From Candidatus Omnitrophota bacterium (GTDB taxonomy: Bacteria > Omnitrophota > Gorgyraeia > Duberdicusellales > 4484-171), in assembly GCA_021735045.1 (NCBI GenBank), contig JAIPHU010000004.1:39888-71887 (forward strand): a DNA stretch of 32,000 nt. The letters run 5' to 3'. Positions within the stretch are counted from its first letter, which is position 1, and the number at the start of each line of letters is the position of its first letter. Below the pieces are notes generated by a model. That model worked only from the letters and a program-made list of their open reading frames with translations, was not told the DNA's origin and did no database searches. The translations under genes were made by a program, and so were the position numbers. Shown here in pieces: positions 9,102 to 10,711 of this stretch.

Positions 9102-9419
9102 ATGGCAGTTGAAGTAACTAATGCAAATTTTGATAGTGAAGTTTTACAATCAGAAATTCCGGTCTTAATTGATTTTTGGGCTCCTTGGTGTGGGCCATGT
9201 AAGGCAGTAGAGCCGGTTTTAGAAGAAATTGAAAATGAAGTAGGCGAAAAAATAAAAATTTGTAGAATTAATTTAGATGAAGCACCGGAAATTGCAACAA
9301 AGTATTCAATAATGAGTATTCCTACCTTAATGGTCGTAAAGGATGGAAATATTATGGATACCAAAGTTGGTGCTTTACCTAAAGATAGTCTGATGAGCAT
9401 TATTCAGCCTTATCTTTAG
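9102..9419 (+). CDS. trxA: thioredoxin
   Basis: WAPWCGPCK active site, 105 aa, AAGGAG RBS. Confidence 0.95.
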   Translation: MAVEVTNANFDSEVLQSEIPVLIDFWAPWCGPCKAVEPVLEEIENEVGEKIKICRINLDEAPEIATKYSIMSIPTLMVVKDGNIMDTKVGALPKDSLMSIIQPYL

Positions 9420-9462
9420 ATAAGTTTTTGACAACAAAGACCTTGCTTTTCTAGAGATAAGT

Positions 9463-9471
9463 TGCTATAAT
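9463..9471 (+). promoter_or_regulatory. extended -10 promoter element (TGcTATAAT) upstream of the tRNA locus
   Basis: ttgcTATAAT, 23 nt upstream of the first tRNA-like segment. Confidence 0.5.
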
Positions 9472-9493
9472 TTTATGCTTTTTTGAATAGAAT

Positions 9494-9608
9494 GGGCCTG
9501 TAGCTCAGCCTGGTTAGAGCAGTCCCGACGTTCGCATTTCATGCTCAGTTGGGATTCCGACTTCTGGCCTACAGTTTAACGGCAGCCAGAACGTCGGAAC
9601 TGACTCAT
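9494..9608 (+). pseudogene. 5' fragment of tRNA(CAU) (positions 1-38) interrupted by a 77-nt structured insert
   Basis: 9494-9522 is identical to 9889-9917 (29/29) and 9600-9608 is identical to 9918-9926 (ctgactcat). Nt 9523-9599 intervene. No recognisable T-arm or acceptor 3' strand follows. Confidence 0.7.
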
Positions 9609-9628
9609 TTCGGTTTTAGGTAAGTTGA

Positions 9629-9898
9629 ATGGCTTATGTTTATATCTTGCAAGATAAGCAAAACGGAAAATTTTATATCGGCAGTACTAATAATGTTGAA
9701 TCTAGATTCAAGCAACACAAAAGTAAAAAACACCATTCAAGTAAATGCTTAACAGATCCTGAAATTGTGTTTAAGCAAAAGTTTGATAGTTTAAAAATCG
9801 CAAGAAAAATAGAGCTAAGGTTAAAGAAATATAAACATAAAGATTTCATTGAAAAAATAATTAGGGACGGTATTATAAAGAAAATGCAGGGCCTGTAG
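9629..9898 (+). CDS. small GIY-YIG nuclease (YhbQ/COG2827-like, 89 aa)
   Basis: YVYILQDKQNGKFYIGSTNNVESRFKQH gives GIY...YIG, Arg and His, with a downstream Glu (KIELRLKK). The stop TAG at 9896-9898 lies inside the tRNA. Confidence 0.85.
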   Translation: MAYVYILQDKQNGKFYIGSTNNVESRFKQHKSKKHHSSKCLTDPEIVFKQKFDSLKIARKIELRLKKYKHKDFIEKIIRDGIIKKMQGL

Positions 9899-9963
9899 CT
9901 CAGCCTGGTTAGAGCAGCTGACTCATAATCAGTTGGTCGGAGGTTCAAATCCTCCCGGGCCCA
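9889..9963 (+). tRNA. tRNA with CAU anticodon; elongator type, Met or more likely Ile2 (lysidine)
   Basis: Hand-folded cloverleaf of 75 nt: acceptor gggcctg/cgggccc, D-arm gctc-agcctggtta-gagc, anticodon arm gctga-ctCATaa-tcagt, variable loop tggtc, T-arm ggagg-ttcaaat-cctcc, discriminator A. The G1-C72 pair excludes an initiator. No encoded CCA. Confidence 0.9.
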
Positions 9964-9985
9964 CGTTAAAAAAAATAGGAAATTA

Positions 9986-10711
9986 ATGAATTTAAAAGAT
10001 GAGATAAAAAAGCTGATAAAGCTACAAGAGATAGATAAACAAGTTTACAAACTTAACCTTCAAAAAAGCAACAATATACCTGCAAAGATTGATGAGTTAA
10101 AAGAATCTATTGATCAAAAACAAAAAGAGTTTGCCGCATTTAAAGACAAGGTAAATCGACTTGAGCTAGAAAAAAAGAATAAGGAAGGGGAACTTACCCA
10201 AAAAGAAGAAAATTTAAAAAAAGCAAAGTCACAGCTTTATCAGTTAAAATCGAATAAAGAATATCAAGTAAAACTGAATGAAATTAGTTCTATAGAGGCA
10301 GATATCTCCTGTGCCGAAGAAGAAGTTATAAAGTTTTTAGATAATATTGAACAAGAAAAAGCAGAGGTAAAAAAAGAAAAAGAAAAAGTTGAATCTGAAA
10401 CTAACAAGATGAAGCAAGAAATCGCTGACTTAGAAAAAGAGACCAAAGAAATTGATCAAAAAATTAACGAGCTAGAAAATAAACGAAAAAGTTTTACTTC
10501 TGATGTCGATAAAAAGATTCTTAATCAATATCAAGACCTTTTAAAAAAGCGAAATGGCCTTGCCATTGTTCCGGTTGTAAATAATAACTGTGGGGCTTGC
10601 CATATTTCATTAACTCGACAAAAAGTCAATGAAATAAAGATGTATGATAAGCTGATTTTATGTGAAAGTTGTGTACGTATTCTTTATATCCCAGAGGACC
10701 TAGAGTTATGA
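9986..10711 (+). CDS. COG1579-type coiled-coil protein with a C-terminal C4 zinc ribbon
   Basis: Long Lys/Glu coiled coil, then CGACHISL...CESC. Confidence 0.8.
   Translation: MNLKDEIKKLIKLQEIDKQVYKLNLQKSNNIPAKIDELKESIDQKQKEFAAFKDKVNRLELEKKNKEGELTQKEENLKKAKSQLYQLKSNKEYQVKLNEISSIEADISCAEEEVIKFLDNIEQEKAEVKKEKEKVESETNKMKQEIADLEKETKEIDQKINELENKRKSFTSDVDKKILNQYQDLLKKRNGLAIVPVVNNNCGACHISLTRQKVNEIKMYDKLILCESCVRILYIPEDLEL

Follow-up and report, generated by a model that had tools for sequence, protein, structure and literature searches.

What brings a nuclease gene into the middle of a transfer RNA (tRNA) gene, and how does the tRNA survive its arrival? The question is raised by a 32,000-nucleotide (nt) stretch of contig JAIPHU010000004.1 from a Candidatus Omnitrophota bacterium, referred to below as the window. 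Here an intact tRNA(CAU) gene is preceded by a copy of its own 5′ part, this copy is split by a 77-nt hairpin-forming insert (H), and an open reading frame (ORF) for a GIY-YIG nuclease lies between the copy and the gene. The arrangement belongs to a family found in Omnitrophota and Patescibacteria, and we consider it fairly likely to be a mobile cassette of nuclease and hairpin that enters tRNA genes together with a replacement for part of the tRNA. The features concerned are as follows, in window coordinates.

9443-9471, plus strand: promoter-like element of the original tRNA gene, read from the sequence, in a block conserved in relatives
9494-9522, plus strand: piece A, an exact copy of tRNA nt 1-29 (29-nt repeat of 9889-9917)
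9523-9599, both strands: H, a dyad-symmetric double hairpin of 77 nt, recognised by fold z-score, covariance model and covariation
9523-9554: hairpin 1 of H, TCCCGAC..GTTGGGA
9555-9599: hairpin 2 of H, TTCCGAC..GTCGGAA
9600-9608, plus strand: piece B, an exact copy of tRNA nt 30-38 (9-nt repeat of 9918-9926)
9609-9628, plus strand: nuclease-gene leader containing a weak AGGT of Shine-Dalgarno type, read from the sequence
9629-9898, plus strand: stand-alone GIY-YIG nuclease gene of 89 amino acids (aa), matching PF01541
9849-9876, plus strand: promoter-like TTGAAA-16-TATTAT inside the 3′ end of the ORF, found by a scan with 10/12 matches
9889-9963, plus strand: intact tRNA(CAU), CCA not encoded (ARAGORN; Rfam RF00005)
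9523-9917, plus strand: formal inserted unit of 395 nt, comprising H, B, leader, ORF and replacement A

Piece A corresponds to the acceptor 5′ strand, the D arm and the first anticodon-stem base, and piece B to the remainder of the anticodon-stem 5′ strand and the loop through CAT. Because the two abut in the tRNA (9917|9918), the 77-nt insert breaks the copy without the loss or duplication of a tRNA base. By our own arithmetic, the chance of an exact 29-mer repeat in 32 kb is ~2e-9 and that of an in-register 9-mer within 200 nt is ~8e-4. A single tRNA is called, at 9889-9963/4 (ARAGORN, anticodon CAT; Rfam RF00005, 72.3 bits versus a threshold of 29). The upstream copy (9494-9608) matches neither a tRNA nor any other Rfam family, even at E<=10, and so is not a second gene. 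An earlier note on this DNA, made from the letters alone, had described the exact repeats, the 77-nt insert and one intact tRNA, and each is borne out by sequence comparison, ARAGORN and Rfam. We take the tRNA to be tRNA-Ile2-like rather than an initiator, judging by our own reading of its resemblance to E. coli ileX.

Evidence on the origin of this layout comes from relatives that lack it, a comparison that the earlier note had proposed. A metagenome scan with the exact tRNA 3′ half gave 0 matches to empty sites, and a protein-anchored search was used instead. With the CT398-like neighbour (window 9986-10711) as anchor, 80 related metagenome loci were retrieved. About 60 related Omnitrophota loci with enough upstream sequence read tRNA(CAU)-tRNA(Val,CAC)-CT398 with no GIY-YIG gene, and the gene is present in 3 loci from 2 contigs (L119 and L167/L169, the latter equivalent to L020). 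The 395-nt unit of the window, in which the GIY-YIG gene is the sole ORF, is placed between tRNA nt 29 and 30, and taking it out leaves a promoter and an unbroken tRNA, which is the state of the ~60 related loci. Since relatives carry a plain tRNA(CAU) without ORF or H, the cassette is an insertion, and it displays the presence/absence polymorphism at an orthologous site that is expected of a mobile ORF of the homing-endonuclease type. Relatives do not show two ordinary tandem tRNA genes here, nor does a conventional RNA family fit 9494-9628, and these were the two outcomes that the earlier note had named as telling against an insertion.

The orthologous tRNA has in fact been invaded at least twice, as judged from differing positions and ORF lineages: L119 carries another ORF lineage with H after tRNA nt 13, and in L041 H follows nt 10. 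The cassette stands at one locus in the window, L001, L018, L004 and L020, and in L008 the downstream genes are as in the window clade while the upstream genes are different. The tRNA-Val found in most relatives (L098-L177) between tRNA(CAU) and the CT398-like gene (window 9964-9985) has been lost from the window and is missing from L001, and in L018 a third, H-split copy of tRNA(CAU) takes its place (1850-1983). The cassette in the window resembles a reduced derivative passed on by vertical descent; L018, the 88% relative, keeps this second H-bearing copy behind the tRNA.

The same design recurs well beyond this site. Homologs of the ORF at 97, 88, 80, 62 and 53% identity all come from Omnitrophota, and all five relatives have a tRNA 5′ copy, a structured insert at the equivalent place, the next 9-12 tRNA bases, the ORF and an intact tRNA(CAU). 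In each of them the split copy agrees with the tRNA of its own lineage. More distant homologs follow a like scheme at tRNA-Val(CAC) in Giovannonibacteria, tRNA-Arg(GCG) in Saccharibacteria CPR2 and tRNA-Val(TAC) in another member of the Omnitrophota. A scan of genome collections with a 29-protein alignment yielded 80 further loci, mostly from Patescibacteria. A same-strand tRNA starts within 60 nt of the stop codon of 85 of the 99 GIY-YIG ORFs, the commonest offset placing the stop at tRNA nt 8-10, and these tRNAs have 21 anticodons (Met/Ile2, Val, Arg, Thr, Ala, Phe, Ile, Asn, His, Lys and Pro). At most loci the ATG is preceded, at a distance of 60-135 nt, by a second occurrence of the first 10-29 tRNA nt, and directly by the 5-12 nt that come next in the tRNA; at 31 loci the entire split copy is 100% identical to the tRNA. 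The copies divide at position 10-20 or 29, most often at nt 10-11 or 15 within the D arm, with nt 29 characterising the window clade. A 5′ tRNA piece broken by H, an ORF of ~88 aa and an intact tRNA follow one another at most of 85 non-redundant loci. In the window and at most family loci, a duplicated gene end flanks the ORF, and the remainder of the gene is joined to one of the two copies. The empty sites and the recurrence at 21 anticodons uphold two suggestions of the earlier note, namely a nuclease cassette in a tRNA gene whose function was saved by 5′ duplication, and a tRNA-targeting mobile unit carrying a tRNA 5′ half.

Could H instead be an intron, or the debris of one? The earlier note drew an analogy with group I introns, and in the window the similarity to the tRNA does stop right after CAU, the site of some bacterial tRNA group I introns; in Azoarcus tRNA-Ile such an intron lies in the anticodon loop. 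Moreover, H interrupts the tRNA sequence precisely. However, searching 9400-10000 on both strands against Rfam at E<=10 returned only the tRNA and chance-level matches, with no Intron_gpI or ribozyme family. The 280 nt after the copy are filled by the ORF, leaving no space for an intron core, and what lies downstream is a whole tRNA instead of a 3′ exon. Across the family, similarity usually ends in the D arm, and the break point in the anticodon loop is particular to the window clade, so the analogy does not hold. Removal of H yields a tRNA recognisable by ARAGORN in 7 copies only, all 7 of them beside an intact tRNA of the same anticodon; the H-bearing copies therefore look dead rather than spliced, and H as the intron of a sole functional tRNA gene was rejected. 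A remnant of a group I intron or of another self-splicing or excised intervening sequence, with H-bearing copies that still function, is accordingly barely credible.

The nuclease itself is a genuine member of its superfamily. The 89-aa ORF matches PF01541 with an E value of 3.7e-13 (50 bits, cut-off 22.6), which upholds the GIY-YIG assignment in the earlier note; the ORF does not end before the tRNA, as had been supposed, its last codons lying within the tRNA and its stop codon TAG (9896-9898) coinciding with tRNA nt 8-10. Among 29 homologs, Y5, Y16, G18, R26 and E62 are invariant and H30 is nearly so; from knowledge of the GIY-YIG superfamily, we take the conserved Y, R, H and E positions to be catalytic. 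The nearest relative of known structure by profile comparison is the UPF0213 protein BH0048 (1zg2, E 3.7e-10), with 1ywl at E 1.2e-6, followed by the I-TevI catalytic domain and Slx1. None of the NCBIfam models scores above its cut-off, so the protein belongs to a distinct subfamily within the UPF0213/YhbQ-like proteins. PADLOC gives weak generic GIY-YIG matches alone and no membership of a defence system, and an exact protein look-up of the ORF finds no identical record. Substitutions between the window and L004 number 8, 11 and 21 by codon position, mostly third, a distribution that suggests mild purifying selection on the ORF in the window clade.

This protein family comprises 1,558 clusters at E<=1e-10 among 1.84 billion representatives, and it includes predicted proteins that end in translated tRNA (for example GPIAQR or AHSSVVRAGDS). 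Many database relatives (P0044, P0054, P0063 and others) are 110-160 aa long with the domain C-terminal. The N-terminal extensions of those proteins probably come from gene callers that run through the tRNA fragment and H.

H is the most conserved non-coding part of the element and marks its junction with the tRNA; a reading of the 77-nt insert as an incidental second event is not supported. In every case it has the form [nnCCGAC-G..loop..GTCGGn'n'][nnCCGAC..loop..C-GTCGGn'n']; the smallest versions are 39-44 nt long, and longer ones contain nested CCGAC units. The window H has a fold z-score of -4.5. A covariance model (R1) made from 34 short Patescibacteria copies, with the window clade excluded, finds exactly 9523-9599 in the window on both strands, with 29.1 and 25.7 bits (E 1e-4 and 5e-4). 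Of the cells in the R1 alignment, 99.4% are paired. Covariation at the two closing pairs of each hairpin, left unconstrained by the way in which copies were selected, amounts to 13-14 double changes per pair, and the observed covariation score was reached in 0 of 500 shuffles. Compensatory changes are also found within the window clade (GCAT/ATGC to GTAC/GTAC, and TCCGAC/GTCGGA to CCCGAT/ATCGGG).

R1 finds ~115 modules in 84 GIY-YIG loci. In ~80% of these loci a module lies no more than 120 nt upstream of the ORF, and many loci carry a further H directly after the tRNA. In 292 kb covering the 80 Omnitrophota loci, H (E<1e-3) is confined to the 3 ORF-bearing loci, so that H and ORF co-occur exclusively among the Omnitrophota loci examined. 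H also inserts alone. In Giovannonibacteria CP066687.1 (L009), a 45-nt H at 968-1012 lies in frame and encodes APTLAVGAPTPEDVG in the hinge of rplL (ribosomal protein L7/L12), and a 39-nt H at 1446-1484 lies in frame in a 222-aa ORF and encodes PRRKVGVPTKASG; these two modules score 51 and 59 bits with R1. Likewise, comparison of L082 with the orthologous L097 (87% identity over ORF and tRNA) reveals an extra, clean 40-nt double hairpin within hairpin 2 of the L082 module. No target-site duplication accompanies the insertions: in the window, tRNA nt 29 and 30 adjoin H directly, and the same is seen at other positions in relatives. In its multiple copies and discrete insertion, H behaves like a miniature palindromic mobile element, similar to miniature inverted-repeat transposable elements (MITEs) or repetitive extragenic palindromic (REP) sequences.

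This independence of H might be taken to mean that two unrelated events are superposed, an ordinary tandem duplication of part of the tRNA gene that enclosed a free-standing nuclease gene and a later strike of H on the dead copy. Dead copies are safe landing sites, and survivorship alone would enrich H in them; one related locus, L115, has a 5′-half duplication of the same tRNA without ORF or H. Such a coincidence is nevertheless quite unlikely, given the defined position of H in the fragment upstream of the ORF at most loci and its restriction to ORF-bearing loci in the Omnitrophota set. In addition, H subtypes, split positions and ORF lineages are associated with one another, and tRNA-linked ORFs without H are a minority.

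L115 and several other loci also carry tRNA duplications of other kinds. L115 has a diverged copy of tRNA(CAU) nt 1-39 at ~190-290 nt before the CT398-like gene; the copy stops just past the anticodon and is followed by 55 nt and the intact tRNA, with no ORF and no recognisable H. This may be what is left of a cassette, or else a separate event that shares the break point of the window. L101 has a small insertion that duplicates the T arm and 3′ end of tRNA(CAU), with ..GAGTCCTGGCGGGCCCA present three times, and L149, L131 and L166 have T-arm/3′-end duplication units of tRNA(CAU) containing GTCGGttgagaaCCGACgaccaaaaagggg. None of these four has a GIY-YIG gene, and all their insertions stand downstream of tRNA-CAU and upstream of tRNA-Val. 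Elements of several kinds appear to have a hot spot in the tRNA(CAU) gene. At L013 (2405-2535), downstream of tRNA-Arg(GCG), an unrelated insert of ~110 nt without CCGAC lies between duplicate copies of the T arm and 3′ end of that tRNA. In the 97% relative (L001 3287-3288), the intact tRNA reads GAGCGTCTGAC where others read GAGCAGCTGAC, a change that would leave a U-U facing position 43 of the anticodon stem; AG is retained in the upstream fragment.

Upstream of piece A, TTGCTT (9443-9448), a 17-nt spacer ending in TG and TATAAT (9466-9471) form an element with an extended -10 box, TGcTATAAT (9463-9471), which the earlier note had pointed out. The block TTGCTTTTCTAGAGATAAGTTGCTATAAT is conserved in the window, L001, L018 and L004, and the adjacent leader diverges. 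A simple scan missed this presumed promoter, whose -35 box has 3/6 matches. Contrary to the earlier note, it is not the only promoter-like site. The TTGAAA-16-TATTAT element ends 12 nt before the tRNA, inside conserved C-terminal codons (FIEK..DGII in the window, FIEK..DGYI in the family), and a comparable site is present at the ORF end of 35 of 72 family loci versus 10% of control windows in the ORF body. Because the site coincides with conserved protein codons, this enrichment is confounded by protein conservation. The codons of the conserved C-terminal peptide may double as a tRNA promoter, and with a second promoter-like site a long precursor is not the sole possible route to the tRNA. Since ORF and tRNA overlap, the ORF mRNA and the tRNA overlap whichever promoter is used. 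RNase P cuts at the 5′ end of tRNAs, and here its cut would take off the stop codon of the ORF.

Two further features lie near the upstream element. An inverted repeat, CTTATCTTTAGATAAG / CTTTTCTAGAGATAAG (16 nt, 88%), at window 9409-9461 spans the stop codon of trxA as well as the -35 region of the element and may be a terminator or an operator. L004 has an insertion of ~97 nt (2753-2849) between the conserved -10 box and the tRNA fragment that is absent from the window, L001 and L018 and that holds CTGACTCA, which resembles piece B.

Across the family, lineages of the nuclease keep to one tRNA and sometimes switch, as about half of nearest neighbours share an anticodon: the nearest-neighbour ORF is at the same anticodon in 37 of 72 cases, for which 4.6 are expected and 14 is the maximum in 1,000 shuffles. 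Several metagenome-assembled genomes have at least two loci at different tRNAs. H-ORF-tRNA is the commonest arrangement (56 of 85 loci), and at least 12 loci, including L018, have another copy after the intact tRNA in which the first bases are missing, H splits the sequence and the 3′ end is complete. Split fragments flank the ORF on both sides in L081 and L085, and at the tRNA-Val of L119 a fragment and an intact tRNA occur without the ORF. The H-bearing copies of L060 and L045 differ from the intact tRNA, and their B and H pieces match across the ORF-tRNA unit. The upstream copy of L087 agrees with the intact tRNA; in the window the copies are identical.

The cassettes are made up of three parts: H with its CCGAC/GTCGG stems, the minimal ~88-aa UPF0213/Slx1-like GIY-YIG nuclease, and a replacement for the displaced tRNA part. 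On insertion, the native 5′ part (A) would remain downstream of the native promoter, attached to H and without function, and the cassette's own A would be fused to the native 3′ part, leaving the essential tRNA intact directly after the nuclease gene. The nuclease would cut, probably at the hairpin or cruciform of H or at the tRNA-gene junction, and the breaks would let the unit be copied into tRNA genes by recombination, with homing-like spread among alleles and occasional jumps to other tRNAs. The regenerated intact tRNA would stay a target, which would explain the serial, nested copies in relatives. The mRNA of the nuclease might be transcribed from the captured tRNA promoter or be made together with the tRNA.

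Several observations weigh against this reading. The restored tRNA is itself the target sequence, so that simple homing by cutting of the empty site predicts self-cleavage. The protein is a bare catalytic domain with no DNA-binding domain by which to choose a site, and R1 finds no other H in the window, where the module is single-copy. In IMG/VR there are matches to the N-terminal GIY motif alone and no full-length relative, which offers no vehicle between genomes; for the same reason a phage origin was rejected. The window-clade cassette looks vertically inherited, with no sign of recent movement. Furthermore, 4-5 loci are mirror images in which the intact tRNA is followed by the ORF and an H-bearing copy with a complete 3′ end (a mirror or downstream module is found in L029, L032 and L042), and a single simple insertion unit for every locus was rejected in view of these and of the three-copy arrangements. 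The upstream repeat runs 8-37 nt into the 3′ end of the ORF in L055, L087, L094, L071 and L119; in the window clade there is no similarity 5′ of the repeat (5-8 of 24 positions identical). The variants may have arisen where the regenerated tRNA was hit again and again, while older copies decayed and repeats recombined with one another, and one might conjecture that a repeat reaching the ORF tail reflects serial insertion followed by decay of the older ORF.

A last difficulty lies in the constancy of the fragment. In an alignment of the window, L001, L018 and L004, pieces A and B are invariant except for C17T, which is present in both copies of L001, while the leader before the ATG and the H loops diverge freely. 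Neutral remnants would be expected to decay, so ongoing gene conversion, re-creation or selection is needed. The tRNA of L008 differs, with GGGCCCATAGCTCAGTGGTCAGAGCAG and GTGACTCAT, and its split copy follows its own tRNA; piece B reads GTGACTCAT in L008 and L020, in agreement with their own tRNAs. At tRNA position 28, C28 of the window clade is replaced by G28 in L008 and L020, and B changes likewise. The shared C17T of L001 suggests that gene conversion can account for the identity of the 29-nt piece A. It is not easily behind that of the 9-nt piece B, which leaves room for a regulatory RNA or guide-like role of A-H-B.

One such role would be that of a transcribed mimic of the tRNA 5′ half, kept in shape by the two hairpins. 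This domesticated leader would regulate how well the nuclease mRNA is translated, how stable it is or how the tRNA is processed, for instance as a competitor for RNase P or for the 3′ half of the tRNA, and selection would keep it identical to the tRNA. It would account for pieces conserved like the tRNA itself between a drifting leader and drifting loops, for the co-variation of B, too short for ordinary recombination, with the tRNA and for compensatory changes that preserve the hairpins. The fragment lies directly behind the conserved promoter, the ORF stop inside the tRNA couples processing and translation, and hairpin 1 of the window has a G-U pair on the sense strand. Against this, H looks alike on both strands: its motif pattern gives 97 matches on the ORF strand and 94 on the other, which are the same modules. 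In the unconstrained closing pairs, 5 GU versus 7 AC wobbles reveal no preference for the sense strand, so that selection on RNA rather than DNA cannot be asserted; wobble counts at core pairs are biased by the search pattern and were not used. Other copies of H lie behind tRNAs, within further H modules or in frame in protein genes, contexts that DNA-level selfish spread fits better than a leader function. The fragment is decayed at several loci (L009, L017 and L023), and the cassette is missing from most relatives and hence dispensable for tRNA(CAU). We regard a regulatory leader as unlikely.

The nuclease might alternatively be guided by A-H-B, a programmable targeting unit in which H would be the scaffold and its flanks would match the two sides of the insertion point; the RNA or single-stranded DNA of A-H-B would pair with the complementary strand of an unbroken tRNA gene and position the enzyme. 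An exact match of both flanks to the adjacent tRNA, seen at the 31 loci with a perfect split copy and at many tRNAs, is what such a guide would look like, but plain insertion into a tRNA gene gives an identical pattern with no guide needed. The module accompanies the ORF, upstream at most loci or downstream (L029, L032 and L042), the nuclease lacks a DNA-binding domain of its own, and if homing were selected for, the agreement of A and B with the tRNA sequence would be accounted for. The intact resident tRNA, however, would be a perfect self-target, decayed or mismatched fragments stand beside an intact ORF at some loci, and the H copies within protein genes have no tRNA flanks. No nucleic-acid-guided GIY-YIG enzyme is known, which counts further against a proposal that we hold to be improbable.

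Should the reading as a mobile cassette be correct, a widespread selfish element acts on the essential, mostly single-copy tRNA genes of small-genome Patescibacteria and Omnitrophota, and the host is not killed because the element supplies the replacement part. Its protein family numbers at least 1,500 clusters at 50% identity. Annotation oddities would be explained as well: the 'GIY-YIG nuclease family protein' genes by tRNAs, translated-tRNA tails such as GPIAQR, and tRNA pseudo-fragments. Gene-terminus replacement, known from fungal mitochondria, would extend to bacterial RNA genes. One of the smallest known nuclease domains would be paired with a defined DNA or RNA structure, and site choice by structure or pairing could be of practical interest. 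A guided nuclease would make the cassette a guide-directed mobile element of a new kind, perhaps also a natural 'cleave-and-rescue' drive that acts on essential tRNA genes.

Full-text searches of open-access papers turned up no account of a GIY-YIG gene combined with a double hairpin and a split tRNA copy in bacteria, and the cassette family is apparently undescribed. Its closest counterparts are the mobile ORFs (mORFs) of fungal mitochondria, which replace a gene terminus in atp6 of Allomyces macrogynus and in atp6, atp9, cox2 and nad3 of Glomus, the Glomus atp9 mORF encoding a GIY-YIG enzyme (PMC3630166). Like the cassette, these are free-standing endonuclease genes in an essential gene that bring a replacement end and produce a functional hybrid, with the native end left as a duplicated remnant by the ORF, and the ORF can be in phase with the host gene. 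The cassette differs in that it occupies a bacterial tRNA gene rather than a mitochondrial protein gene and usually replaces the 5′ end. Its copies are usually identical, not diverged, a conserved double hairpin marks the remnant, and the nuclease is a bare domain of ~88 aa.

For H, parallels are offered by the palindromic elements of Rickettsia, reportedly described by Ogata and co-workers in 2000 and, to our knowledge, linked to no nuclease. The double-hairpin elements of Allomyces mitochondrial DNA are another parallel, in the account given of them in PMC3787672 (citing Paquin et al. 2000). Like both, H is short, mobile and hairpin-forming, inserts precisely and is tolerated at non-essential sites as well as in frame in protein genes, as in rplL of L009. 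Unlike them, it has its own CCGAC/GTCGG motif, dyad symmetry and a tight link to one nuclease family and to tRNA copies.

Small nuclease genes flanked by palindromic repeats are familiar from REP sequences or bacterial interspersed mosaic elements (BIMEs) with their REP-associated tyrosine transposases (RAYT), the 'REPtrons', and from elements of the IS200/IS605 type with hairpin ends. They share with the cassette the lack of target duplication and the conservation of hairpin structure rather than of long sequence. The cassette enzyme, by contrast, is GIY-YIG and not HUH/Y1, and the site is a tRNA gene with partial tRNA duplications.

Phage T4 SegB is reportedly a free-standing GIY-YIG homing endonuclease in a tRNA gene cluster (see PMC2330249). 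Elements of this type share with the cassette the GIY-YIG domain and the character of a selfish gene among tRNA genes, with the spread by cleavage and repair that we propose here. Unlike the cassette enzyme, Seg and Tev enzymes are 200-250 aa long and have a DNA-binding domain, and no tRNA duplication accompanies them.

Integrase islands and prophages at tRNA genes restore part of the tRNA and leave a partial direct repeat. They resemble the cassette in carrying a tRNA part that keeps the gene intact; they differ in their tyrosine or serine recombinase, in using the tRNA 3′ part and in their length of kilobases, as against 395 nt, a 5′ part and no recombinase here. An integrase-mediated island was rejected for the window on these grounds, there being no recombinase gene in the unit and the repeat being the tRNA 5′ part. 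There is a small chance that the element is categorically new, if the hairpin module directs the nuclease. By analogy with the systems above, we would otherwise describe the cassette as a combination of known themes, in which endonuclease-driven mobile ORFs are joined to palindromic mini-elements.

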